This document shows positions 2,831 through 64,000 of a stretch of 64,000 nt of DNA, one piece after another (position 1 is the stretch's first letter; each line of letters begins with the position of its first letter). The notes under the pieces are model-generated. The model was not told the DNA's origin, did not search any database, and was given only the letters and a program-made list of their open reading frames with translations. The stretch comes from Escherichia phage JH2. The position numbers and the translations under genes were made by a program. The stretch lies in the sequence record KF055347; one strand, 5' to 3'.

Positions 2831-3169
2831 TTAAATCTTGAAAATTTGCTCGTTCTGCCACATATCGTAAAACTTATCACTTACCTTTATGACTGATGAA
2901 GTGTGCATACAATTCAGGGAGAACCATGATGGTGTATTATCATCCATAAGTGTTTCAAGTTTTTGTGTAACGTCCACATCCATGTCTGCAACAACGTAAT
3001 TGCCTCGCATCTTGCAAACAATTCTTCCAAACAAGATTGCACTTCTGCCTCTTCGGTCATCACAGTACATAACTGTGTCACCGTGCTTAACATCTTGTCC
3101 GATACTATCAACACCTAATTTAGCACCTGAGATAATGTCATCATAAGATAGCTTTTTTGCTTTAGACAC
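2831..3169 (-). CDS. hypothetical protein
   Basis: 112 aa ORF, GTG start after GGAGAAA; same strand and tight spacing with neighbours. Confidence 0.45.
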   Translation of the reverse strand: MSKAKKLSYDDIISGAKLGVDSIGQDVKHGDTVMYCDDRRGRSAILFGRIVCKMRGNYVVADMDVDVTQKLETLMDDNTPSWFSLNCMHTSSVIKVSDKFYDMWQNEQIFKI

Positions 3170-3485
3170 GGTATTTCTCCAAGTTTCTTTTTAGATATAA
3201 CCAACCATAGTCAGTTCTTTCTACACCCATGAATAGTGGAGCCATCACAACTTTACCGAAAGTATTCCTGTGTTGGCAGATTTCAAAGGAATACTCTTTC
3301 TCGATATCAATCCCGTATTTGTACAGAACTGCTTTTAAAACTTGTTCATTATCCAGAAGTGTATCTGGAGTCTCACCATACTTCTCAAGTAACGGGTCAT
3401 ACATAAACACCGTCATAGAGATATTGTAGTTTGAGAAGTGGCTCTTCTGAGCCACAACCTCTTTATTAATGCTCTGTGAATCCAT
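3162..3485 (-). CDS. hypothetical protein
   Basis: ORF trimmed to ATG (MDSQS...) after AAGGGG. Confidence 0.45.
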   Translation of the reverse strand: MDSQSINKEVVAQKSHFSNYNISMTVFMYDPLLEKYGETPDTLLDNEQVLKAVLYKYGIDIEKEYSFEICQHRNTFGKVVMAPLFMGVERTDYGWLYLKRNLEKYRV

Positions 3486-43854: not shown

Positions 43855-45456
43855 TCAACGTCTAAGCCCCTCATATGGGTTTCCTCTCACTAAGTCTGTA
43901 TGAGCACCCATTGATGGTGGCTTGAATAATTTAACTTCGTTAAGACTGTTGAAAGCATCACTGGTAGCATCCACTTGGTCATCTTTAGTTTTACCATCAC
44001 CACAAAAACCTTCAAGTTCTTGGAAGTAAGCTTCGTTCCAACTACCTCTCAAGACTTTTACAAGTCCAGCTTCAGAAGCAGCAGAAAATCCCGCAAAGCG
44101 GGTAACTTTATCTTTATTTGTTGGTTTAGCTCTTGCGCGATAACCTTTCTCGGCAAGTTTCCTGATGAGGGATGTTGCATAGGATTTACCAGCAGCGCCT
44201 GGGTCTTGAGGGATAAAAATACCAGTTCGCTTACCGTCACTTTCAGCAGTCAAATTAATTTGTGTTTCGACTCCAGAGGGTCTATCTCTAAATCTTACTA
44301 CATCAATGATATAATAGCAACCGTCTTTTTTAGATTTACCCATCTTAACACCCGCTGTCCAGTCTGGGTTAGGGTTAATTTCAGATGGTAAAGTCGCTGC
44401 TAAGTCCCATGCTCTGACATCAAACACATCTTCTGGGAGTGAATCAACAATCTCACACCATTGTCTTTGCCAATAGTTTGAACCTTCTGCACGAGCCTTC
44501 CAGTTACCGAAACGAAGTCTTGCAACGTTTACAGGTGTGTTGTTTTCCAACTTACCACGATATTTAGGCTCTAAGAAGTCAAGAATTGGGTTATCATCAA
44601 TCGTACCAGAGATGAAGGTGTATGTCTGAGGAATCTCAAGAGGGAACATTTCAAGAATCTTGTCTCTTTCCCAATCAGAAACCATCACACCATCATTCAT
44701 AACATACCAACGAATACGACCACACTTCTCAGGGTCTGGGTAACCTTCTTCATCTAAGAAGGGTTCTACCCAATCATAAATGAAGTGGTCTCTATCTGGG
44801 TTCATAGAAATCTTCATGTATGAGTCACCTTCAGCACCGGAACGTAGACGGGTCTGTAGGTATGAAATCTGTGAAGCAGAGAAGTGTGTACCTTCGTCAA
44901 AGTAGATAGCTGAGTATTCAATACCCTGATGACCTTCAGCGTGCTTTTCAAGTTCTAGGTAGGTGAACTTAATAGTTGCCCCAGAAGGGAATGTGATAGT
45001 CATCTTCTGCTCGTGAGGAACCCCACCAAACTTACCAAATAGTTTCTTTGCAGCAGGCCATAAACCACCTTGTAACTGTGTTGTATTTCGACGGAAATAT
45101 ACAGCATTATAGTTAGGGTCTTCAATAAACCTTAAAGAGTCCATTAACAATGCAGCAGTTTTACCAGCACCAGCAGCACCACCATATAAAACCAAGTCAG
45201 CATTAGTATTTAAAAACACCTCTTGAGAACCCGGCTGAGGGGCTACATAGTTCTTATCAGTCATCAATTTGAAGATAAGTCTAACTTGGTCTGGTGTATA
45301 TCTTAATAAAGTCAGAATTTGAGTTGGAAGGAATTTAGAGGGGTCTTTACCGAATGATTTGATAATTTCTTTTACTTCATCAGAAAGCCCCAACTCTCCA
45401 GCTAGGACTTTCCTAACATCTTCCACTCGCTTCTGCTTAACAGCATTTAAGTCCAT
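43855..45456 (-). CDS. terminase large subunit
   Basis: Walker A LVLYGGAAGAGKTAAL, Walker B-like IYFDEGTHF, C-terminal RNase H-like nuclease region; start trimmed to MDLNAVK... after GGAGGTG. Confidence 0.88.
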   Translation of the reverse strand: MDLNAVKQKRVEDVRKVLAGELGLSDEVKEIIKSFGKDPSKFLPTQILTLLRYTPDQVRLIFKLMTDKNYVAPQPGSQEVFLNTNADLVLYGGAAGAGKTAALLMDSLRFIEDPNYNAVYFRRNTTQLQGGLWPAAKKLFGKFGGVPHEQKMTITFPSGATIKFTYLELEKHAEGHQGIEYSAIYFDEGTHFSASQISYLQTRLRSGAEGDSYMKISMNPDRDHFIYDWVEPFLDEEGYPDPEKCGRIRWYVMNDGVMVSDWERDKILEMFPLEIPQTYTFISGTIDDNPILDFLEPKYRGKLENNTPVNVARLRFGNWKARAEGSNYWQRQWCEIVDSLPEDVFDVRAWDLAATLPSEINPNPDWTAGVKMGKSKKDGCYYIIDVVRFRDRPSGVETQINLTAESDGKRTGIFIPQDPGAAGKSYATSLIRKLAEKGYRARAKPTNKDKVTRFAGFSAASEAGLVKVLRGSWNEAYFQELEGFCGDGKTKDDQVDATSDAFNSLNEVKLFKPPSMGAHTDLVRGNPYEGLRR

Positions 45457-45477
45457 TAAGCACCTCCGCAAATAGAA

Positions 45478-45678
45478 TTATTCAGAGTCTGTAGCAGTCT
45501 CTTCTTTCTTAACTTCGAACTTTGCATCAACAGCATCAAGAAGTGCATCCATAGAGGCTTCTTTAATATCAATACCTGTTGCTACAGATAATCTGTCTGC
45601 AATTGCCATGATAGTATTCTGCATAAACACTAACTTCTTGTTAGCTTCATAAAGTTCTTTATAAACGTTCTCGCTCAT
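45478..45678 (-). CDS. hypothetical protein upstream of terminase
   Basis: 66 aa ORF with GGAGAAAAC RBS; too small to call a small terminase subunit. Confidence 0.45.
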   Translation of the reverse strand: MSENVYKELYEANKKLVFMQNTIMAIADRLSVATGIDIKEASMDALLDAVDAKFEVKKEETATDSE

Positions 45679-45900: not shown

Positions 45901-45976
45901 TGGAGAATCCGAAGGGACTCGAACCCTTATAAACCTGTTTTGCAGACAGGCACATATCCATTTCTGTCACGGATTC
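45901..45976 (-). tRNA. tRNA-Cys (anticodon GCA)
   Basis: Cloverleaf read by eye: CCA encoded, T-arm AAGGG/CCCTT with TTCGAGT loop, anticodon loop CUGCAAA, acceptor 7 bp. Confidence 0.7.
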
Positions 45977-45980
45977 AAAT

Positions 45981-46073
45981 TGGAGGAAGATACCAGACTT
46001 GAACTGGTACACCGATTTCTCAGCTACTGGCAGTTTAGCAAACTGCTCCCTTACCTTTTAGGGTTAATCTTCC
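45981..46073 (-). tRNA. tRNA-Ser (anticodon GCT), long variable arm
   Basis: T-arm ACCAG/CTGGT, anticodon arm GCAGT-UUGCUAA-ACUGC, ~21-nt variable arm, perfect 7-bp acceptor. Confidence 0.7.
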
Positions 46074-46074
46074 A

Positions 46075-46809
46075 TTATTTCTGTAATGCGTTCTTCATTT
46101 CTGGTGTTGCAATAGTGTCAATCACACCAGTTTTACAAGCATCATCAAACCAGTCTGGTAAGATACCTGCTAAGAACCCATTGATATTCGTTTTAAGGTA
46201 CTCTGCAATAAGGGCAGCTTCTTCTTCAATCATCTGCACAACTTCATCTGCATAAGCTGTAATCTTTGAGATACCTTCATTAATCTTGCTAACAGCTTGG
46301 TTAGCTAAATCAGAAATAGTATCAAGACCTTCATCAATAGCATCTTGTAAGTCACTTAATACACCATTAACACCATCTAGTGCGCTGTTAATTGTGTCAA
46401 TAGCTTTTTGACCATACTCTGTAGCAACACCCATAATACCACTAAATGGTGTACAACCGACTTGCTCTCCTGCTGCACCCATAACATTGGAATACCCCTT
46501 TGCTACCTGCATACGTGATGAAAACTCATCAATAGACTTTTGACCATAGTCTGTTAGGGTCTTAGTAGTTGCTGTAGTGCTTGTAAGGCTTGTTGTAAAG
46601 CTGTTTAGAAGGGCTGTTGTGAGTCCAGCAGCAACAAGTTTATCCTTTATTGTAGGGTCTGCTACAGAGCTAATAGAGCTTACAAGTGATGTAGAGGCAG
46701 CTACGGTTCCACCGAGAACTGCTGCACCAGTAATAAGGGGATTAGAAAACCCTCTACCGGTTTTTAAGAGATTAAAAATCTCCTTACCTTGTTCTGTCAT
46801 CTCTTTCAT
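46075..46809 (-). CDS. hypothetical Ala/Ser/Thr-rich protein embedded in tRNA array
   Basis: ORF trimmed to MKEMTEQ... after AAAGGTG to avoid overlapping the upstream tRNA. Confidence 0.5.
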   Translation of the reverse strand: MKEMTEQGKEIFNLLKTGRGFSNPLITGAAVLGGTVAASTSLVSSISSVADPTIKDKLVAAGLTTALLNSFTTSLTSTTATTKTLTDYGQKSIDEFSSRMQVAKGYSNVMGAAGEQVGCTPFSGIMGVATEYGQKAIDTINSALDGVNGVLSDLQDAIDEGLDTISDLANQAVSKINEGISKITAYADEVVQMIEEEAALIAEYLKTNINGFLAGILPDWFDDACKTGVIDTIATPEMKNALQK

Positions 46810-46825
46810 TAAGCACCTTTGAAAT

Positions 46826-46902
46826 TGGTAGTCCAGTGGGATTTGAACCCTCTTCTCATGTTTTTCAGACACGCGCTTTAACCATATAAGCTACTTGGAC
46901 TG
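46826..46902 (-). tRNA. tRNA-Phe (anticodon GAA)
   Basis: Anticodon arm CGUGU-CUGAAAA-ACAUG; T-loop UUCAAAU; T-stem and acceptor each carry one mismatch, ends approximate. Confidence 0.6.
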
Positions 46903-46907
46903 TAAAT

Positions 46908-46983
46908 TGGGGTGACCTACGGGATTTGAACCCGTATAGACCATGTTCACAGCATGGGTCATTACCTTTTATGATAAGGCCAC
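46908..46983 (-). tRNA. tRNA-His (anticodon GTG)
   Basis: Perfect T-arm ACGGG/CCCGU, anticodon loop with GUG, 76 nt. Confidence 0.7.
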
Positions 46984-47014
46984 ATTTAAGGACTCTCGTA
47001 AGAACCCTTAGAAG

Positions 47015-47090
47015 TGGCAGCGGCATAAGGATTTGAACCTTAATAAGACAGCTTCAGAGACTGCTGCATTGCCAGTTATGCTATACCGCT
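47015..47090 (-). tRNA. tRNA-Gln (anticodon CTG)
   Basis: T-arm TAAGG/CCTTA, D-arm GCAT/ATGC, anticodon stem with two G.U pairs, loop CUCUGAA. Confidence 0.6.
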
Positions 47091-47095
47091 AAATT

Positions 47096-47174
47096 TGGTA
47101 CTCCATATCGGATTCGAACCGATACATAACACAGATTTTAAGTCTGGCCTCTCTGCCAATTGGAGTAATGGAGC
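47096..47174 (-). tRNA. tRNA-Leu (anticodon TAA), atypical short variable region
   Basis: Perfect T-arm; anticodon loop CUUAAAA; ~7-nt variable region instead of a long arm, so identity is tentative. Confidence 0.5.
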
Positions 47175-47176
47175 AT

Positions 47177-47252
47177 TGGCGGGGGATGTTGGAATTGAAC
47201 CAACTTCTTCGATTTCAAAGACCGAGGTTTTAACCTTGTAAACTAATCCCCT
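47177..47252 (-). tRNA. tRNA-Gln (anticodon TTG)
   Basis: Perfect T-arm GTTGG/CCAAC; anticodon loop CUUUGAA. Confidence 0.6.
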
Positions 47253-47260
47253 TTAAATCT

Positions 47261-47818
47261 TTACTTTCTCAGTGGATGAATAAAGAATGCCAACATAACT
47301 CTTTCCCTTGAGAATGCTCTTTCTTCTGGGACAACACTTTTTAGTTTCCACCCAACATAAATTCTCCAGTAAAATTGTTTACCAAAGACTTTGATTGATG
47401 GGACAAAAGCGAATAATCCCCAAGCATTGCTGTTCCACATTAGGAGATAACCAGTCTGATTATCTTCAGGGTCAGAACTTACGTTGATATTACCTTTCCA
47501 CTTAGTAACATCTTTTACATCTCTTCCTAATACATGGTAAGAGAAGTTATAAGCTTTGTTTCTCCAGAGCCATCCAACTCTCTGCAAATAGACACCAAGC
47601 TTACCAATCTTTCTAATCTTAGCCCATCGTTTAATGTGACCTTCATCACCATCAATAGGGTTGTCATATGTCTCCATCCATCTGAATCCAAAAGGTAGAT
47701 GTCCTTTCTTCTCACTATAGAATGGAACTACAAAAGGTGCTAAGATAACTGCTAAGGTTGCTGCCAATGGGTCTAACAAAGCTAGGAAAATCCATGAAGC
47801 ATACTTCAAATATCTCAT
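47261..47818 (-). CDS. hypothetical membrane protein embedded in tRNA array
   Basis: 185 aa, N-terminal TM helices (WIFLALLDPLAATLAVILAPFVVPF); AAGAGG RBS. Confidence 0.5.
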   Translation of the reverse strand: MRYLKYASWIFLALLDPLAATLAVILAPFVVPFYSEKKGHLPFGFRWMETYDNPIDGDEGHIKRWAKIRKIGKLGVYLQRVGWLWRNKAYNFSYHVLGRDVKDVTKWKGNINVSSDPEDNQTGYLLMWNSNAWGLFAFVPSIKVFGKQFYWRIYVGWKLKSVVPEERAFSRERVMLAFFIHPLRK

Positions 47819-47830
47819 TTAAATAGCCTC

Positions 47831-47906
47831 TTTAAATTGGTGCAGGATAAGGGATTCGAACCCCTATTAACAGCTTCGTAGACTGTTGCTCTATCCATTT
47901 GAACTA
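47831..47906 (-). tRNA. tRNA-Arg (anticodon ACG)
   Basis: T-arm with TTCGAAT loop; anticodon loop CUACGAA; acceptor 7 bp. Confidence 0.65.
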
Positions 47907-47911
47907 ATCCT

Positions 47912-47989
47912 GCAAAATTGGTGTTCCAAGACGGATTCGAACCGTCACTAATACAAGGTTTGAGCTTGCATCCTCTGCCAATTGGGATA
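47912..47989 (-). tRNA. tRNA-Leu (anticodon CAA), atypical short variable region
   Basis: Perfect T-arm GACGG/CCGTC; anticodon loop CUCAAAC; 78 nt without long extra arm. Confidence 0.5.
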
Positions 47990-47990
47990 C

Positions 47991-48065
47991 TGGAACGTGG
48001 TACTCACTAAAGGACTTGAACCTTTTTCTTCATCTTGTAAGGGTGATGTTTTACCATATAAACTA
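47991..48065 (-). tRNA. tRNA-Val (anticodon TAC)
   Basis: Perfect T-arm AAAGG/CCTTT; anticodon loop CUUACAA. Confidence 0.65.
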
Positions 48066-48160
48066 AGCGAGTATGAAAGAGGTCTGAAGTTGTGCCGCTA
48101 ACTCAACTCCGTGGAATTTGTTACGGTCTTCAGTTGACACCAGCGGTCTTTCACTTGACC

Positions 48161-48236
48161 TCTGAATTGGTGCTCCCACAAGGATTCGAACCCTGATAAG
48201 TTGCTTACAAGGCAACCGTAATAGCCAATTATACGA
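48161..48236 (-). tRNA. tRNA-Thr (anticodon TGT)
   Basis: Perfect anticodon stem GTTGC/GCAAC; loop CUUGUAA. Confidence 0.7.
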
Positions 48237-48243
48237 TAGGAGC

Positions 48244-48318
48244 ATTAATTTGGAGCATCCAGAGGGAATCGAACCCTCAACCTCAGTTTGGAAGACTGTA
48301 ATTTTCCCGTTTAAACTA
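48244..48318 (-). tRNA. tRNA-Gly (anticodon TCC)
   Basis: Perfect T-arm GAGGG/CCCTC and perfect acceptor GCATCCA/TGGATGC; anticodon loop CUUCCAA. Confidence 0.7.
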
Positions 48319-48324
48319 TGGATG

Positions 48325-48400
48325 CACTAATTGGTGGAGTCACTGAGAATTGAACTCAGTTCCCGAGTTTGCAAAACTCGAATTTTAACCATATAAACTA
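48325..48400 (-). tRNA. tRNA-Ala (anticodon TGC)
   Basis: Perfect T-arm CTGAG/CTCAG and anticodon stem CGAGT/ACTCG; loop UUUGCAA. Confidence 0.7.
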
Positions 48401-48406
48401 TGACCC

Positions 48407-48482
48407 CAATGTTTGGTGCAGGTGGAGGGAATTGAACCCATCGTCTTACTGATTAAGAGTCAGCCGCATAACCATTTTGCTA
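48407..48482 (-). tRNA. tRNA-Lys (anticodon CTT)
   Basis: Perfect acceptor GCAGGTG/CACCTGC; anticodon loop CUCUUAA; weak T-stem; paralog of the tRNA at 49729. Confidence 0.6.
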
Positions 48483-48489
48483 CACCTGC

Positions 48490-48567
48490 ATTAATTTGGT
48501 AGGAGACAAGGGATTCGAACCCTCAAACACCAACTTCTAAGGATGGTAGGTTTACCAATTACCGTCA
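48490..48567 (-). tRNA. tRNA-Leu (anticodon TAG), atypical
   Basis: T-arm AAGGG/CCCTC; anticodon loop CUUAGAA; acceptor pairing needs 2 extra nt near the D-arm; no long variable arm. Confidence 0.5.
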
Positions 48568-48829
48568 ATCTCCCATTAAATCTTTTTAGAGAACTTCTAA
48601 GAACCTAAGCAACAAGGTTCCACAACAAGCTGTAATAACCTTAGAAGCCCTCTAAAAAGACCTAAATTGGTCTTTGCATAGTCTTGTTTAATCCGGTGAC
48701 TAGAACCTTTGGAGAGCTTGATATTATCTCTTCTCCGTGACACCTACTAGGTGCTTTATCAGTGTGTACGACAATACACGAGGGATACCAAAGCAACATC
48801 CGAATGAAGCTTGGCTTTAAATCTTATTA

Positions 48830-48919
48830 GGCGGTAAGTAAAGGAGTCGAACCCTCACCGTATCTCTACAGTGGCAACAGTTTTCAAGACTGTTTGGCTG
48901 CCATTAGCCGCTACCTACC
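48830..48919 (-). tRNA. tRNA-Ser (anticodon TGA), long variable arm
   Basis: Perfect anticodon stem ACAGT/ACTGT with loop CUUGAAA; ~20-nt variable arm; CCA only partly encoded. Confidence 0.6.
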
Positions 48920-48932
48920 CCTAATAAGACTT

Positions 48933-49015
48933 TGGCATGGGACGGAGGAGTTGAACCCCTTTGAAACGGTTTTGGAGGCCGTTGCTCATGCCTTAGAGTC
49001 TTAACATCGTCCCAC
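48933..49015 (-). tRNA. tRNA-Trp (anticodon CCA), with ~7 extra nt between D-arm and acceptor
   Basis: Anticodon arm ACGGC-CUCCAAA-ACCGU; acceptor strands pair only if the gene is ~83 nt. Confidence 0.5.
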
Positions 49016-49157
49016 ACTATAATTCGAAGCTTACCGTATTTTCGCAACACTGTAAAGCCCCTTCTCAGATTATTTACATGTTCTGGAAAACATGAGATAC
49101 AGACCACCTCCTTACACGGAGACCCGATAAGGTCGTCTAAGCAATCTGCTAACTATT

Positions 49158-49234
49158 TGGCACACCCTACAGGATTCGAACCTGTAACTCAATGATTAGA
49201 AGTCATTTGCTCTGTCCAGTTGAACTAAGGGTGC
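49158..49234 (-). tRNA. tRNA-Arg (anticodon TCT)
   Basis: Perfect T-arm ACAGG/CCTGT and anticodon stem AATGA/TCATT; loop CUUCUAA. Confidence 0.7.
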
Positions 49235-49570
49235 ATTAATCTTTAAAGACTCTCTTAGAAAGCCCTTAAAGATGCCCACCTTATTAATCATACCGTGGGC
49301 GAGTACGCCAAATTCTTTGATGAGGGATTGGAAGACCTCACTGGTGTTTAGCCTATCAAGCTACTGCCAGAAAAACATTGTCGTTTGCATTTATTTTAAA
49401 TTTGCAAAATAGACGCTACGCAACGAAAACTATTCAGAATATGTACAACAAATTTCCCCACATTGTGTTACGTCTAACGCTCATGTATTGGTGTTTGAAT
49501 TATACATATTATGAAGTATTTTAGTTACTATAAAGTGGTCACATCTCAATGTCAACAACTTTATTGAAAT

Positions 49571-49645
49571 TGGTTGTAGGTGAGGGTATCGAACCCTCTT
49601 CTAACGGTTATCAGCCGTTTGCATTACCATTTATGCTAACCCACA
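49571..49645 (-). tRNA. tRNA-Ile (anticodon GAT)
   Basis: Perfect T-arm GAGGG/CCCTC and anticodon stem AACGG/CCGTT; loop CUGAUAA. Confidence 0.7.
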
Positions 49646-49647
49646 AT

Positions 49648-49724
49648 TGGAGGTTCAGATGGGAATCGAACCCACATTCATAGGGCTTATGAAACCCTTG
49701 CATTACCTTATCTGCGACTGAACC
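49648..49724 (-). tRNA. tRNA-Met (anticodon CAT)
   Basis: Perfect acceptor GGTTCAG/CTGAACC; anticodon loop UUCAUAA. Confidence 0.6.
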
Positions 49725-49728
49725 ATAT

Positions 49729-49804
49729 TGGTAGAAGTGGAGGGATTCGAACCCATCGCCTGTCAGATTAAAAGTCTGCCGCATCACCATTCTGCTACAC
49801 TTCC
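49729..49804 (-). tRNA. tRNA-Lys (anticodon TTT)
   Basis: Paralog of the tRNA at 48407 with the same atypical T-stem; anticodon loop CUUUUAA. Confidence 0.6.
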
Positions 49805-49810
49805 ATTAAA

Positions 49811-49950
49811 TTATCTTTGTAGATAAGCTACCCAGACTTGCTTAAGGTCTGTAGCGATGTGCTTTGTTGGGTTTAAATCTAGAATTTACCCTTTCACCCT
49901 TTGTGGTCGCATACTCACAGGTAAGCTTAATAACTTATCTACAAAGATAA
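49811..49950 (-). ncRNA. candidate structured ncRNA closed by a perfect 17-bp long-range stem
   Basis: TTATCTTTGTAGATAAG (49811-49827) is the exact reverse complement of CTTATCTACAAAGATAA (49934-49950), enclosing 106 nt with internal hairpins; no ORF or tRNA. Confidence 0.35.
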
Positions 49951-49953
49951 TTA

Positions 49954-50084
49954 CCAGACCGTTGTTTATCATCTTAAGTGCTACCATTACACCAACTCGA
50001 CATCTGCCGAGTGAAGGAATCGAACCTTCGCCTTTTCTTTACCGAGAAATAGATTGTTTAAGTTTTGCTGTAAACGGTCTTCTG
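49954..50084 (-). ncRNA. candidate Y RNA-like ncRNA with circularly permuted tRNA-like module (YrlA-type)
   Basis: Minus-strand RNA: closing stem CAGAAGACCGUU...AACGGUCUGG; internal canonical T-arm GAAGG-UUCGAUU-CCUUC; acceptor-like stem CUCGGC-AGAU-GUCGAG capped by a tetraloop; D-arm-like GUG-UAAUGGUAG-CAC; no anticodon arm. Confidence 0.45.
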
Positions 50085-50097
50085 TAAATTTGTTGAG

Positions 50098-50174
50098 CCA
50101 GACCAAGTTTTAAATTTTTTCAAAATTAAATTGGCTTGAAAATATCATACGTACTTGCTGAATTTGGTCTTCTG
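50098..50174 (-). ncRNA. structured intergenic element with the same closing stem (CCAGACC / GGTCTTCTG family)
   Basis: Terminal inverted repeat CCAGACCAA ... TTGGTCTTCTG as in the 49954-50084 element; AT-rich interior. Confidence 0.3.
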
Positions 50175-50261
50175 CTCCTTTAAAGAATACTCGTAAGAAC
50201 TCTTTAAGGGAGGGGCTAAATAGCCCTCTCAAAACATCATCTTGAAATACTTATTATAATT

Positions 50262-50339
50262 TGGCGGTTACGAAGGGATTTGAACCCTCATCATCTCCCG
50301 TGACAGGGGAGTATTTTAACCAGATTAAACTACATAACC
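50262..50339 (-). tRNA. tRNA-Asp (anticodon GTC)
   Basis: Perfect anticodon stem CTCCC/GGGAG; loop CUGUCAC. Confidence 0.65.
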
Positions 50340-50345
50340 TTTATT

Positions 50346-50433
50346 TGGTGTGCCGTGTAGGAGTCGAACCTACCGAGTCTCAATGACAAGGGATTTACAG
50401 TCCCCACCGCTACCATCTACGGGATAACGACAC
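50346..50433 (-). tRNA. tRNA-Tyr (anticodon GTA), long variable arm
   Basis: Perfect T-arm GTAGG/CCTAC; anticodon loop CUGUAAA; ~15-nt variable arm. Confidence 0.6.
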
Positions 50434-50493
50434 ATTTTATTTTCTATTCAGGCTAAGGACTTGCACCTTACAAATCGGTGAGCAATCGCTTCT

Positions 50494-50570
50494 CTCCTAA
50501 ATTTGGCGGTTAGTCAGGGATTCGAACCCTGTGCCATTCGCTTAACAGGCGACCGCACATACCTTATGTG
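50494..50570 (-). tRNA. tRNA-Asn (anticodon GTT)
   Basis: Perfect T-arm CAGGG/CCCTG; anticodon loop CUGUUAA. Confidence 0.65.
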
Positions 50571-50591
50571 CTTCCTAACCTTAATACATTG

Positions 50592-50651
50592 CCAGACCGT
50601 GTTTTTTCTTTTATCCGCAAAAAGTAGTTTGTTGCTGCATACGGTCTTCTG
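50592..50651 (-). ncRNA. structured intergenic element (CCAGACC / GGTCTTCTG family)
   Basis: GCCAGACCGT ... ACGGTCTTCTG terminal inverted repeat enclosing ~45 nt with an internal hairpin. Confidence 0.3.
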
Positions 50652-50657
50652 CAAAAT

Positions 50658-50733
50658 TGGAGGCGGGTGCAGGAGTCGAACCTGCCGATACCATGCTAAT
50701 GAGACATGTGAGACGCCCTTTCTCTATACCCGC
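50658..50733 (-). tRNA. tRNA with CAT anticodon (Met, initiator or Ile-lysidine type); unusual U37
   Basis: Perfect T-arm GCAGG/CCTGC, D-arm GAGA/TCTC, anticodon loop CUCAUUA. Confidence 0.5.
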
Positions 50734-50745
50734 AATTCTTAATGA

Positions 50746-50818
50746 CCAGACCAAATCTCTTCTTTGTCCGATTTATCTTCAGATGAATAAGATTAAGTTT
50801 GCTGTAATTGGTCTTCTG
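50746..50818 (-). ncRNA. structured intergenic element (CCAGACC / GGTCTTCTG family)
   Basis: CCAGACCAA ... TTGGTCTTCTG terminal inverted repeat as in the other three family members. Confidence 0.3.
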
Positions 50819-50825
50819 TCAAAAC

Positions 50826-50903
50826 TGGCGTTCCAGAAGGGATTTGAACCCTCAAATATCCACTTTGAAAGAGTGGTGACTTTACCATTTTGTCTACTGG
50901 AAC
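50826..50903 (-). tRNA. tRNA-Glu (anticodon TTC)
   Basis: Perfect anticodon stem CCACT/AGTGG with loop CUUUCAA; perfect acceptor GTTCCAG/CTGGAAC. Confidence 0.65.
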
Positions 50904-50910
50904 ATTAATT

Positions 50911-50987
50911 TGGTCTCTGTTGGAGGACTTGAACCTCCGGCCTTACCGCCCCAAACGGAACGCTCTACCAAGCTGAGCTAAACAGAG
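50911..50987 (-). tRNA. tRNA-Pro (anticodon TGG)
   Basis: Perfect T-arm GGAGG/CCTCC and perfect acceptor; anticodon loop UUUGGGG. Confidence 0.65.
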
Positions 50988-59959: not shown

Positions 59960-60508
59960 ATGAAAAAAGATAACTTAAAAGAAGTTGAAGGCAACTACCT
60001 AGTCCTTGACTGGAATGATATTCGGGAAGCACTCTCCGAAGAAAGCCTTGACATACTAGAGCAACTTATCTTCTCAGTACGTCATACCAGAGGTATTGTA
60101 AACGGTAAAGAGCCATTAGAAGGAATCTTTGTAGAGAAGTCTTATCCGTTCTATGAAGACACTTTACAGAAAGTTAAGATGTACTTTAGACAGAAGAACC
60201 GTAAAGTGGTCACTATGGTATCTCTTGGTGGACAGAGTATGTCTGTGATGGAGGATATCAACCCTAAGAGACCAAGTAAAGGTGTCTGTATAAAAATCAC
60301 AGGGCATGAAGAGTATATCTCAGTAGATGACTTTAGTGCATTCTGTAATGGTTCTGCTGTCTTTAATGGGTTCCACTATGATATCCGAGTGTACCCAATC
60401 AAGGGAGATGATATCATGATGCAGATATTTGATAACAACAATGGATTTACTCATTTTTATCAGACAACCAAGTCATCACTGAAGACAGTTCTGGAAACAC
60501 TGATTTAA
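59960..60508 (+). CDS. hypothetical protein
   Basis: ORF trimmed to MKKDNLKEV...; followed by a terminator hairpin. Confidence 0.5.
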   Translation: MKKDNLKEVEGNYLVLDWNDIREALSEESLDILEQLIFSVRHTRGIVNGKEPLEGIFVEKSYPFYEDTLQKVKMYFRQKNRKVVTMVSLGGQSMSVMEDINPKRPSKGVCIKITGHEEYISVDDFSAFCNGSAVFNGFHYDIRVYPIKGDDIMMQIFDNNNGFTHFYQTTKSSLKTVLETLI

Positions 60509-60518
60509 AATATCTTAA

Positions 60519-60551
60519 GAGCCTCCTTAATTGGGGGCTTTTTAATTTTTA
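60519..60551 (+). terminator. rho-independent terminator
   Basis: Hairpin GAGCCTCC-TTAATTG-GGGGCTT followed by TTTTAATTTTT. Confidence 0.6.
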
Positions 60552-62140
60552 TAAAATTTCATCGGTTGTCCCAACCTCTGGGTCACCATCATATGTGAAT
60601 AAAATATCTACCCTTCTTAATAACCTTCTTAAGCTTACTCTCTATATATAGTTATATAGTACTATATAGTATCTTAGTATCTATCTAGTGGTCTTAATAG
60701 CCCCTCTGTATAGCCCTTCTAAACACTCTTCTAACAAGCCTTCTTAACAACCTATACAATCACCTTAACCATCTCTCTACACACTCTTAGAAGCCCCTAT
60801 ACACCTCTTAATCTCTAGGTTACCTGTGTTACTTAACAGTAACCCATCATGTTAGCTATGTTACCCTCTATAGGTGTTCACTAGGTATTACTAAGCCTCT
60901 ATATAGACTGTTTTAACAAACTTAACAGGAATATCTTTACAGACCTTATCTCACAAGGTCTAACACGGTACTAACAAGGTATCTTATAAGCCTGTTTATG
61001 CCTGTATTTTTAGAAGACTGTTTAGGTAATTATTCAGAATTTTAAAATTTTTATAAAATAGGGCTATCAAGTCATTTTTTAGGGTCTTTGAAGGAACTCA
61101 AAAATATCTGTAGAGTTGATTCGGTAGAATCTACCTCATGATGTATATCTGCTTGGTAGCCCTTAACAGCTCCTTAACACCCCCTTTGCAAAATTTTAAA
61201 ATATCATTAACAATCTCTCAACAGTTCTTACAACCTTTTAACATCTCTTCAGAGGTCTTAACAGATTCTTAACAGAACTAACAAGGGTGTAACAAGTTCT
61301 TAACAGTTGATACATAGTCTTTACAGAGTCTTAACAGATGACTAACAATAGCTAACAAGTTAATTTTAAAGAGTTATTTTGTTAAGATAATTAACAAGTT
61401 CCTAACAAGTGTTTAATCTTTTTAACAAGCTGTTAACACGGTCACTATCTCTTTTCTTATCGTTCCCTTTCCCTCTTAGTGATTCTCTAAATAGCCCTCT
61501 TAAAAGCTCTCTATAGCTCCTTGTAAGCTCTTTTAAGCCTCTTCCTAGTAATTACACCCCAACTATGAAGAAAGCTCTTTATAGGGCTTTACAGAGGCTT
61601 TAAAGGCTATGTCAAAGACTCTTACAAGGCTTTTACGTGGTTTTAACAGAGATTTAACAAGGGGCTAACAAGTCTCTAACAAGTGCCTTAAAAACATAAC
61701 TATGTAGGGTTTGTTAAGAAATTGTTAAGAAAATGTTAAGGGGGCTAGCATTTACGTAACTTTTAAGCTACTTCAAAGCAACTTTTAAGCCCCTATAACA
61801 TACTTTTTAGTTACTATCAAGGGGCTTGTTTAGTTATTCACAAGGAACTAACGAGATAATAAAGCTTACACCCTTATAAGATTCTTTTAAGGCTCTAGAA
61901 AGCTTTATAAAGGGCTTTTAAGGGTGAGGTAATGCAATCCCTTAAGTTAGGTTAATAAGGCTGTTATAGGTCTTTATAGAGCGTTTAAATGGTTGCCCTT
62001 CCCTTTCGGGTTATGGGCTTATATTTAAGTTGATTTAATAAAAGGCTATAGAGTAAGCTATAGAGTTATTGCTTTTTAAGGTCTAGTAAGATTCTGGAAA
62101 GGGAAAGGGAAAGGATTGTATAAGGATTGTATAAGACGTA
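60552..62140. repeat. ORF-free, repeat-dense non-coding region (degenerate YTAACAR / CTTTWAAGG motifs, short tandem repeats)
   Basis: No ORF of 60 aa or more on either strand; many copies of CTTAACAG / CTAACAAG / TTAACAAG-like octamers (densest 61200-61450), tandem GGGAAA x3 and GGATTGTATAA x2 at 62098-62141. Confidence 0.6.
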
Positions 62141-62166
62141 AAAAAGCCCCTATTGGAAAGGGGCTG
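62141..62166 (-). terminator. rho-independent terminator ending the early gene array (minus strand)
   Basis: Minus-strand hairpin AGCCCCU-UUCCAAU-AGGGGCU followed by UUUUU; a second hairpin GGGGCUAUUUAGCCCC lies just upstream. Confidence 0.65.
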
Positions 62167-62203
62167 TAAAGGTATCTGGGGCTAAATAGCCCCGTTGCGT
62201 CGA

Positions 62204-62452
62204 TTAGTTATAATCTTGTTTGTTGTAGTACAGGGAGACGATTTTTTCTCCCCAATAGTGATAAGTGTAACCATCTTTAAGAACTTCCTGTTTTGTTTCT
62301 TTCCAGAACTCATCTGAAGGATTATAGTCTTTGATGGTCTGACTGATAAGAACTTTCACCATTTCAAAGGCGTTATCAGTGCCCACAAGGTCGAATTTAA
62401 CATCCAGAGAGTAGAAGCCAAATTCATTAACAGTTGCGCGGATAGTTGCCAT
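62204..62452 (-). CDS. early protein D (hypothetical, 82 aa)
   Basis: ATG 8 nt after AGGAG inside a conserved cassette; the track's longer ORF would read through the 5' hairpin. Confidence 0.55.
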   Translation of the reverse strand: MATIRATVNEFGFYSLDVKFDLVGTDNAFEMVKVLISQTIKDYNPSDEFWKETKQEVLKDGYTYHYWGEKIVSLYYNKQDYN

Positions 62453-62543
62453 TTTCGAATCTCCTAGTTTAAGGATTTTGTTTAGTAGGGAGGTCATCCC
62501 TCCCGTTGATTAGTAATTTACTGCATGTTGGCGTATGTTGCAA
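62453..62543 (-). promoter_or_regulatory. early cassette 1: sigma70-type promoter (TTGCAA - 17 nt - TAAATT) + 5'-UTR hairpin + RBS
   Basis: -35 at plus 62538-62543, -10 at 62515-62520, hairpin GGGAGG-loop-CCUCCC at 62487-62504, AGGAG at 62461-62465; near-identical cassettes precede the next three genes. Confidence 0.55.
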
Positions 62544-62781
62544 GCCTTTTTTCGTTGTATTTTGTAAGAATCTCACAAGATAAAACATCGTAATTTGTAA
62601 CAGCGTTGCCTTTATCGAGGTCAAAGAATCCAAATGTTTTACCATCTTTGAATCCGACAACTTCGTAAGACTCTTTGATGATTTCACCATTGAACAAATC
62701 ACTTTCGATGCGGTGAATTAATGCTACGTTTTCTTTATCGGTTGCAATTTGTAAAAGTGTGGTTAATTCTACGTTTTCCAT
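62518..62781 (-). CDS. early protein C (hypothetical, 87 aa)
   Basis: ATG after conserved CCTTAAACTAGGAG leader. Confidence 0.55.
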   Translation of the reverse strand: MENVELTTLLQIATDKENVALIHRIESDLFNGEIIKESYEVVGFKDGKTFGFFDLDKGNAVTNYDVLSCEILTKYNEKRLATYANMQ

Positions 62782-62872
62782 CTTGATAACTCCTAGTTTA
62801 AGGACTTTACTTAGTGGGGAGGTTATCCCTCCCGTTGATTAGTAATTTACAGATTTTTGATTGTCTCGTCAA
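62782..62872 (-). promoter_or_regulatory. early cassette 2: promoter (TTGACG - 17 nt - TAAATT) + 5'-UTR hairpin + RBS
   Basis: -35 at plus 62867-62872, -10 at 62844-62849, hairpin 62816-62833. Confidence 0.55.
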
Positions 62873-63377
62873 TATCTTTTTCAATATCTTTTAAAGTTTT
62901 TTCTAAGTTCTTGATATTGAATGATAAACCTTCACCGAGAGTCTTAGAGTAACCGCTAGGGCGTAAGTCATGCAGTTCGATTTCTTCCACATTGGATAAG
63001 TTGACCATCCCACCATTTGCAGCATAGGCTATTGACACAGTATTTTCAGGTGCGTTGTAAAACTTGTTTAAGGACTTGATAGAACGTTCATAAGCCATTT
63101 TATAACTGTTTAAAAGGTTTTTAACGTGATTGTGAACGTTTTTACACTCATCTAAGTAAAGCCCTAAAAACATCGGGAGGAGTTCCGCAACGGCTTGCAT
63201 AAAGTGAGAGACTACAACGGTTGCAACATTACGACGATGAATGTAATAAGCCCCATTTTCTGATTTAGTGATGGTTGCAAAGTGTACACCATTACAACGG
63301 AATTCATAGGTGTCTTTAACAGGCTTTGACATAACACTATTTGAGCGGATGTAATTGATGGCTTTGAACTTGTTCAT
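62847..63377 (-). CDS. early protein B (hypothetical, ~176 aa)
   Basis: ATG (MNKFKAINY...) after conserved leader; the stop codon overlaps the -10 of the downstream cassette. Confidence 0.55.
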   Translation of the reverse strand: MNKFKAINYIRSNSVMSKPVKDTYEFRCNGVHFATITKSENGAYYIHRRNVATVVVSHFMQAVAELLPMFLGLYLDECKNVHNHVKNLLNSYKMAYERSIKSLNKFYNAPENTVSIAYAANGGMVNLSNVEEIELHDLRPSGYSKTLGEGLSFNIKNLEKTLKDIEKDIDETIKNL

Positions 63378-63468
63378 TTTTGAATCTCCTAGTTTAAGGA
63401 CTTTACTTAGTGGGGAGGTCATCCCTCCCGTTGATTAGTAATTTACTTGTTTTGATAGCTGATTGCAA
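63378..63468 (-). promoter_or_regulatory. early cassette 3: promoter (TTGCAA - 17 nt - TAAATT) + 5'-UTR hairpin + RBS
   Basis: -35 at plus 63463-63468, -10 at 63440-63445, hairpin 63412-63429. Confidence 0.55.
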
Positions 63469-63597: not shown

Positions 63598-63939
63598 TTA
63601 ACTGATGAATATTTTTTCAGGTTTTACATAGCTGATACGCTGACTTTTTAGGAGGTCATCCCAGATTAGCGCGGCAATATGAGAATAGCCGGATTCACGT
63701 AAGAGTTTCATTGCTTTACTTCTCGTTTCGAATCTGGTTGCATAGTACTCACTATTCAAAACAGTTTTATTCCCTTCGTTGTCTGTATGGATAATCTGCA
63801 TTACTTGAAAGGGGCTTGTTTCCTCACCTTTGTTCCATTGCTCAAAGTATTTTAGGCACTGCATAGGTGACATCTTATCGCTTACTTGAGTTGACCAAGA
63901 TGAGCCAGCTTTATCGGTAATTACGGTTACATAAGCCAT
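63598..63939 (-). CDS. early protein A (hypothetical, 113 aa)
   Basis: ATG after conserved leader. Confidence 0.55.
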   Translation of the reverse strand: MAYVTVITDKAGSSWSTQVSDKMSPMQCLKYFEQWNKGEETSPFQVMQIIHTDNEGNKTVLNSEYYATRFETRSKAMKLLRESGYSHIAALIWDDLLKSQRISYVKPEKIFIS

Positions 63940-64000
63940 TTTTGAATCTCCTAGTTTAAGGATTTTACTTAGTGGGGAGGTTATCCCTCCCGTTGATTGA
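63940..64000 (-). promoter_or_regulatory. early cassette 4 (RBS + 5'-UTR hairpin; promoter truncated by window end)
   Basis: Same CTCCTAGTTTAAGGA ... GGGGAGGTTATCCCTCCC element at 63943-63991. Confidence 0.45.

Follow-up and report, generated by a model that had tools for sequence, protein, structure and literature searches.

What does a densely coding phage genome keep in a stretch of almost 1.7 kb that holds no gene? The question is raised by a locus of Escherichia phage JH2 (sequence record KF055347), of which 64,000 nucleotides, here called the window, were analysed. A preliminary description, made from the letters alone, had noted a region without open reading frames (ORFs) that is packed with short repeats, and had offered three roles for it: a genome terminus or packaging region, a replication origin, or an array of sites for a DNA-binding protein. 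These readings are weighed here against the sequence of the region, its relatives and the reported ends of related genomes.

The region and its setting

Judged by its sequence, the DNA of the window is that of a Felixounavirus, a Felix O1-like myovirus. For the stretch 60400-62300, matches of 80-92% identity were obtained to 255 phage records, and almost all of these belong to Felixounavirus and its sister genera. Neighbours of the Felixounavirus type are also found in the window, namely the large terminase, portal, capsid and sheath genes and 26 tRNA genes.

The absence of any ORF of at least 60 codons was confirmed for 60509-62203, a stretch of 1,695 bp whose longest ORFs encode 44 aa and 35 aa. 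It is the largest ORF-free gap of the window, the runner-up being a 749-bp gap within the tRNA cluster. In Markov simulations, 75% of the sequences were likewise without long ORFs, as random AT-rich DNA gives; thus, the gap is notable only against the coding density of the phage. The region was correctly placed between the end of a plus-strand operon, with its last stop at 60508, and the early genes, which run leftward and occupy positions from 62204 upward. All features discussed here are collected in Table 1.

Table 1. Features of the non-coding region of phage JH2 and the large terminase gene (window positions; a slash in a sequence marks the DTR boundary)
Feature	Position	Strand	Remarks
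Large terminase gene	43855-45471		phrog_979
Left unique non-coding flank of the DTR	60509..61152	.	conserved across three genera
Predicted intrinsic terminator of the rightward operon	60517..60542	+	stem-loop and T run
CCTTCTTAA-type units	60605-60810		left flank; about 12-bp spacing
TATAG-rich tandem block	60643-60689		left flank
TAACA units	60909-60980	+	left flank
AT-rich stretch	61020-61110		left flank
Small hairpin insertion TGATTCGGTAGAATCTACCTCAT	61117..61139	+	alignment
Left DTR boundary box	61146..61179	+	TATCTGCTT / GGTAGCCC TTAACA gctcc TTAACA
Direct terminal repeat (DTR), placed from relatives	61153..61747	.	UAB_69 DTR, NBEco005 end copies, record starts
Polar array of TTAACA-type units (YTAACARG)	61159..61684	+	20 exact TAACA cores
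Inverted triplet TGTTAA	61712, 61723, 61734, within 61709..61745	-	11-bp spacing
Right unique non-coding flank	61748..62144	.	
CTTTTAAG / CTTATAAG-type units	61758-61790, 61869-61926		right flank; 11-bp spacing
Highly conserved blocks	61870-61915, 62000-62075		right flank
Conserved small hairpin	61995-62018		right flank
Exact tandem repeat GGAAAG x3.2	62096-62114	+	TRF
Exact tandem repeat AAGGATTGTAT x2.3	62111-62135	+	TRF
Two tandem GC-rich hairpins, predicted terminator	62193-62178, 62165-62145	-	second followed by T run

On the left, a terminator is also annotated at the position of 60517..60542 in wV8, KhF2 and Michonne. On the right, the GC-rich hairpins that had been noticed at the edge of the region are indeed present as a tandem pair on the minus strand (62145..62193), with a folding energy of -12.9 kcal/mol (z = -4.4), and they are the predicted terminator of the leftward early operon. 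The two terminators converge and are expected from sequence to insulate the region from transcription.

It may still be asked whether small genes or a structured non-coding RNA are hidden here. In some GenBank records, the region has been assigned short hypothetical proteins, and the window has its ORFs of 44 and 35 aa. However, the longer of these is only 26 aa in all relatives, two of which start it with GTG, and it straddles the physical genome end described below, while wV8 has no ORF of at least 30 aa in the region. The small ORFs are not conserved among relatives, in which the region is kept non-coding, and this bears out what the preliminary description would have led one to expect. In the sequence autocorrelation, the region lacks the 3-bp signal seen in the coding background. 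Furthermore, an Rfam scan of 60300-62400 gave matches at chance level only (E of at least 0.1), the scans ruled out tRNA and RNA-gene readings, and the terminators on both sides point inward. Hidden genes or RNAs are, therefore, extremely improbable as an explanation of this locus.

Short repeats in regular spacing

The dense short repeats that had been described occur far above chance. TAACA is found 28 times on the plus strand and nine times on the minus strand of the region. The plus-strand count is a strand-biased excess of about tenfold over the 2.7 copies predicted by the rest of the window, and Markov simulations gave 3.1 +/- 1.7. Similarly, YTAACAR occurs 22 times (about one expected), TAACAAG 11 times (0.2 expected) and CTTWWMAG 19 times (about one expected). 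When a weight matrix was iterated, the unit came out as nnYTTAACARGnn, for which about 40-54 sites are counted according to the threshold. The true tandem repeats that had been reported were recovered by TRF as GGAAAG x3.2 and AAGGATTGTAT x2.3; they are variable and lie where the region is least conserved.

The spacing of the short units had been called irregular, and here the analysis disagrees. The sequence autocorrelation of the region peaks at lags 11 (z = 9.1) and 10 (z = 8.5), harmonics follow at 21-22 and 31-32, and many period-11 mini-arrays were detected by TRF. The region is not a CRISPR array, as was stated at the outset: it consists of contiguous units of 8-11 bp with no spacers, as against CRISPR repeats of 24-48 bp, which alternate with unique spacers of similar length.

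Genome ends inside the region

The presence of a direct terminal repeat (DTR) in Felixounavirus is already known. For UAB_Phi87, Bal31 digestion together with run-off sequencing established a DTR of 608 bp (PMC4837284), and the large terminase of this phage is reported to group with DTR terminases (PMC4837284). The GenBank record of UAB_Phi87 is not opened at the DTR and thus comes without end coordinates. A DTR of 581 bp was obtained by PhageTerm for Pr103Blw (PMC8303462). PhageTerm DTRs are also reported for six announced phages, and the accompanying GenBank list has PP952733 (H12) and PP886229 (E9) (PMC11737134). In the passages available from the Felix O1 genome paper, short terminal repeats are inferred from the genome size, and the region itself is not discussed (PMC3185647).

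The ends of JH2 were placed by transfer from relatives that are 85-92% identical to it. The 618-bp 'DTR' feature in the GenBank record of Salmonella phage UAB_69 corresponds to window positions 61153-61747. The record of NBEco005 has 651-bp copies, 100% identical, at its two ends; it begins at window position 61745 and finishes at 61155. The records of H12 and E9 also begin at 61745, and those of NBEco004 and EcSzw_1 begin at 61155/61156. The left end therefore falls at 61153 (UAB_69), 61155 (NBEco005) or 61156 (EcSzw_1) by record, and the reported ends disagree by 1-3 nt among records. By this transfer, the DTR of JH2 would extend from about 61153/6 to 61745/7, a length of 591-595 bp, with each end placed to within 1-3 nt.

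Independent records open at the same two points, and the ends in these relatives are fixed and non-permuted. The same sequence stands at both genome ends in close relatives, at the homologous position. With the relatives' ends at about 61153-61156 and about 61745-61747, the first of the three roles offered for the region, that of a genome terminus or packaging region, is upheld. Because these physical ends map inside it, the region is read as a concatemer junction, made up of the DTR and two unique non-coding flanks. The assembly of JH2 appears to hold one collapsed copy of the DTR, and both ends of the packaged genome are expected to carry one.

Mirrored boundaries and a phased array

The left boundary box occurs once in the window, and it is here that the region can still be matched to Erwinia phages. 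At the right boundary, the inverted triplet is followed by GGGGGC and then by the end itself (cut after 61745 or 61747). Read as the reverse complement, this end is TAAATGCTA / GCCCCC TTAACA tttt CTTAACA attt CTTAACA. Thus read inward, the two boundaries mirror each other: each has a box and then inward-facing TTAACA units, which sit 6-8 nt inside the box (left TATCTGCTT/GG, right inward TAAATGCTA/GC). Both boxes and their symmetry are kept in all 11 of the 11 aligned sequences.

Between the boundaries, the DTR has 20 exact TAACA cores (61164 to 61677), every one on the plus strand, and only the final three units are flipped. The cores follow each other at 9-11, 20, 31-33, 39 and 210 bp and keep in phase at a period of 10.40-10.45 bp along about 510 bp (Rayleigh R = 0.76 vs a null 99th percentile of 0.62). 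The base-composition periodogram of the DTR has a peak at 10.4 bp with a power of 10.2, the background maximum being 5.4. In the A+T periodogram, background is exceeded in the DTR only (2.33 vs 1.71), and in the AA/TT periodogram no segment exceeds the background maxima. Since AA/TT phasing stays at background level, the periodic signal is mainly that of the motif and not of generic A-tract curvature. From the 10.4-bp coherence it follows that the sites would lie on one face of B-form DNA across about 50 turns.

The same register is kept in 10 of 10 relatives (R = 0.70-0.81), with DTR lengths from 573 to 618 bp; as relatives share ancestry, this conserved phasing is supportive and not independent evidence. 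The passages on the repeats of UAB_Phi87 and Pr103Blw and the GenBank records tell no more of the repeat than its length and position. The passages of the Felix O1 and Felixounavirus literature that were searched yielded no description of the phased array, the boundary symmetry or the conserved flanks.

Conservation across genera

In Felixounavirus, Suspvirus and Mooglevirus, the region stays non-coding at 1.60-1.69 kb, with the same motif counts and periodicity. Its nucleotide identity across genera is 72-74%, as compared with 58-71% for the adjacent protein genes. Across the three genera, the TTAACA cores hold up better than the spacers, positions in the distant set being conserved at 0.88-0.90 in the former and at about 0.6-0.7 in the latter. 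Insertions and deletions among relatives come as units of 11 or 22 bp or as small hairpin insertions. One of the latter, the TGATTCGGTAGAATCTACCTCAT hairpin, is weak and present as a single copy in the window. Among the aligned relatives only KMM4 shares it at this position, and in other phages an insertion of this type occupies other positions of the region.

Such changes might suggest a slippage-prone spacer around the ends with no sequence-specific function, in which only the two cut sites are selected. The copy number of the 11-bp unit does vary in relatives through the 11- and 22-bp indels, small hairpin insertions appear and vanish between them, and conservation does not extend to the exact tandem repeats at 62096-62135. 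However, a mere spacer would not be expected to be conserved as well as or better than the neighbouring genes across genera, nor to have motif cores better conserved than the DNA between them. Its length is constant at about 1.6-1.7 kb in three genera, the helical phase survives the indels and the same architecture is found in Erwinia phages; all of this makes an idle spacer very unlikely. The alignments show instead a DNA sequence under selection, most of all at the two end boxes and the motif cores. The reading of the repeats as an array of binding sites, the third role offered initially, fits the conservation of the cores and the one-face helical phasing, the sites themselves being putative.

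Far more distant is the Erwinia phage phiEa21-4 (Kolesnikvirus), which is organized alike and has a gene-poor stretch of about 1.4 kb with CTTAACA arrays. Its left box is conserved as GTATATCTGCTT, and three inward-facing TTWACA units stand at the right end. The flank motif differs (YTTAGAAG), and the few TAACA sites have their best period at 11.45 or 9.9 bp, not at 10.4 bp. Kolesnikvirus records open exactly at both homologous points (2512-2515 and 2951-2953 of L020), and a DTR of about 440 bp is implied for this genus by these starts. When IMG/VR was scanned with the left boundary box, 86 loci were found. The TTAACA array accompanies the box in 30, all of the Ounavirinae type; the remaining loci lack it and were set aside as chance matches. 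With this left-box query, no lineage more distant than Ounavirinae was found in IMG/VR to have the array.

Replication or DNA entry as other roles

The second role offered, that of a replication origin, could coexist with a terminus. In such an origin, the direct repeats would serve as iterons and the AT-rich stretch at 61020-61110 as the unwinding element, with the DTR overlapping. The region resembles the iteron origins of lambda (ori), P1 (oriR) and plasmids in that many same-orientation repeats stand in helical register and adjoin an AT-rich block. It is conserved and, as predicted from the terminators, untranscribed. It also has two of the ten DnaA-box-like sites of the window, TTATTCACA at 60594(-) and 61834(+), which are relaxed but conserved matches. 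Classical origins, however, have a handful of iterons of 17-22 bp, whereas the units here are much shorter (8-11 bp) and far more numerous, over 40 of them in 1.7 kb. The IHF consensus is absent from the region, and there is no initiator-like gene among the ten flanking proteins, to all of which Pfam and PHROGs searches assigned an unknown function. Moreover, conservation is highest in the two end boxes, and these fall exactly on the mapped genome ends. An origin is, thus, an unlikely account of the region.

A further possibility is that the arrays act after ejection, through a bound host or phage protein that would hold, pause or protect the incoming end, or that they pair terminal repeats into concatemers. 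From either physical end, the arrays are no more than about 1 kb away, and the promoter scan of the region shows no enrichment (12 sites vs 7.2 +/- 2.9 in shuffles). The injection-stop region of phage T5, for which such a role has been proposed, is comparable in that it is a non-coding block in the long terminal repeat with direct and inverted repeats. Like it, the JH2 region is a repeat-packed non-coding block at the terminal repeat, and it has DnaA-box-like sites, which are reported for T5 as well. The T5 terminal repeat is, on the other hand, about 10 kb long and carries pre-early genes. For phages of the Felix O1 type, no two-step transfer of DNA is known to us, and mirrored sites placed exactly at the two cut points are more simply explained by the formation of ends. 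A role in entry or end protection is, therefore, quite improbable.

Comparison with known packaging systems

The DTRs of Felix O1-like phages (UAB_Phi87 608 bp, UAB_69 618 bp, Pr103Blw 581 bp) are homologous in sequence to that of JH2 and have the same genomic position. Beyond them, the concatemer junction of T7 is the closest functional analogue, in architecture and not by homology. Inside the 160-bp terminal repeat of T7 and on both sides of it, 738 bp of this junction contain 13 copies of CCTAAAG. In both phages, a short exact terminal repeat lies in non-coding DNA with a motif of 7-8 bp present more than ten times. When a motif of this size occurring at least ten times in or beside the terminal repeat was looked for in JH2, it was found (TAACA 28 times, YTAACAR 22 times). 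The two systems have no sequence homology, and they differ in the motif (CCTAAAG in T7, YTAACARG in JH2), in its spacing (peaks at 12-13 bp vs 10-11 bp) and in the length of the terminal repeat (160 bp vs about 590 bp). The T7 junction contains promoters, whereas the JH2 region is closed by terminators, and T7 is a podovirus whose replication and transcription strategy is unrelated to that of JH2. To our knowledge, the function of the T7 CCTAAAG repeats is still unsettled.

For the mechanism, the closest model may be found in phased sites for the small terminase. The R sites of lambda cosB and the pac boxes of SPP1/SF6 are bound by the small terminase, which is ring-shaped in SPP1/SF6, and the DNA is bent or wrapped. 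As in these phages, the short repeats of JH2 are about one helical turn apart and abut the cut sites, in this case both of them. There are 3-7 sites over about 100-200 bp in cosB and pac, whereas JH2 has more than 40 units over 1.7 kb and two cut sites. The JH2 region also differs in that it is without an IHF site and no small terminase was found beside the large terminase. Next to that gene, only an uncharacterised ORF of 66 aa (45478-45678), just upstream, could be seen, to which Pfam and PHROGs assign no function. With this ORF and the flanking proteins all of unknown function, no candidate binding protein emerges from them.

A model for end formation

Of the readings considered, the most probable is that a Felix O1-type phage has its concatemer junction here and that phased TTAACA units in it guide the recognition of the ends and the cutting of the DTR. 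From the observed end positions in relatives, the repeats, their phasing, the conservation and the boundary symmetry, we infer the binding of a protein, its likely identity and a nick-and-copy step as follows.

In replicating DNA, a single copy of the DTR would stand between neighbouring genomes, and each packaged genome would have one per end. Lying outside genes, the region would act in cis as DNA, with the terminators on both sides keeping transcription out. The TTAACA-type units, one helical turn apart and on one face, would be the putative binding sites of a phage protein. Its likeliest identity would be the part of the terminase that recognizes DNA, or else an accessory protein of end maturation. 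Once bound, the protein may coat or wrap the DTR and in this way mark it. Since each boundary has a conserved box and inward-facing TTAACA units, the same nuclease could serve both; its cuts, in mirror orientation and on opposite strands, would be separated by about 590 bp. DNA synthesis across the DTR would provide a full copy for each daughter genome, and this nick-and-copy step follows the general scheme proposed for T7-type phages.

A more specific version can be put forward only tentatively, with a modest chance of being right. In it, the DTR of about 590 bp would be both a nucleoprotein scaffold and a ruler. About 20-25 sites on one face, in the 10.4-bp register over about 50 turns, would load a polar filament or a series of rings from the left cut to the inverted triplet. 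The two staggered cuts, and with them the length of the DTR, would be set in this manner.

Implications

Phages of the Felix O1 type are widely used in Salmonella typing, biocontrol and therapy, and their packaging signals are undescribed. Outside T7 and T3, it is poorly understood how phages with short DTRs recognize the junction and duplicate the repeat. The region offers compact, strongly conserved and easily mutated candidate signals, namely the mirror-image end boxes and the phased array, with which this question can be put to experiment directly. For annotators, it shows where genomes of the Felix O1 type may be opened, and the short 'hypothetical proteins' called within it are spurious. 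For phage engineering, these 1.7 kb are to be kept intact, or they may be made use of for transduction. If the DTR does act as a ruler, it would give a defined cis-acting mechanism by which DTR phages measure and duplicate their ends.

Annotated short genes and copy-number variation in the non-coding region

Several GenBank records of related phages place short 'hypothetical protein' genes inside the non-coding region at the concatemer junction (for example, UAB69_gp027/028, Michonne gp118, phiEa21-4 gp32 and H12 CDS0001/0002). These genes are not conserved between the relatives and some of them run across the physical genome end; they are, therefore, probably spurious calls.

The number of copies of an 11-bp TAACAAG unit (window 61660-61691) differs among the aligned relatives; Felix O1 lacks 22 bp, and several others lack 11 bp. 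Such changes are the pattern expected from replication slippage, and the 10.4-bp register is maintained overall despite them. Small inserts of 22-32 bp, weakly hairpin-forming (such as GGATTCGATAGAATCTATCTCAT and GGGATTGGTAACAATACCAATT), were also observed in JH2, Michonne, KMM4, UAB_69 and wV8. Their presence and position in the region differ from one relative to another, and they resemble very small elements, either mobile or carried by recombination.

Features within and around the region

The whole 64 kb contains only 10 DnaA-box-like matches, two of which fall in the terminal-repeat flanks. A small terminase gene would normally be expected directly ahead of the large terminase gene. In JH2 this place is taken by a short ORF of unknown function, and no small terminase could be recognised there.

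An element of 62-84 nt recurs ahead of each leftward early gene. Read on the minus strand, which is the coding one, it shows a GC-rich hairpin (GGGAGGGAT..CCTCCCC) that precedes TAAACTAGGAG and the start codon. Copies of such an element are labelled direct repeats and terminators in the wV8 record, and it is probably a common processing, terminator or translation-initiation cassette.

Features of the JH2 window
Feature	Position	Strand	Remark
DnaA-box-like sequence (TTATTCACA)	60594-60602	-	terminal-repeat flank, conserved
DnaA-box-like sequence (TTATTCACA)	61834-61842	+	terminal-repeat flank, conserved
66-aa ORF, phrog_4397	45478-45678	-	directly upstream of large terminase gene
tRNA cluster	45901-50987	-	26 genes, small ORFs in between
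Early-gene repeated element	62450-62511, 62779-62840, 63375-63436, 63937-63998	-	coding strand
Small hairpin inserts	61117-61139, 60817-60848		

Divergence of the flank unit

In the Erwinia Kolesnikvirus phiEa21-4, the right-hand flank (3060-3380) of the terminal repeat carries YTTAGAAG as its repeated unit, whereas the enterobacterial phages carry CTTTTAAG. The TTAACA units of the terminal repeat itself are retained in both groups. This hints at two separate binding specificities, of which one is conserved and the other has diverged.
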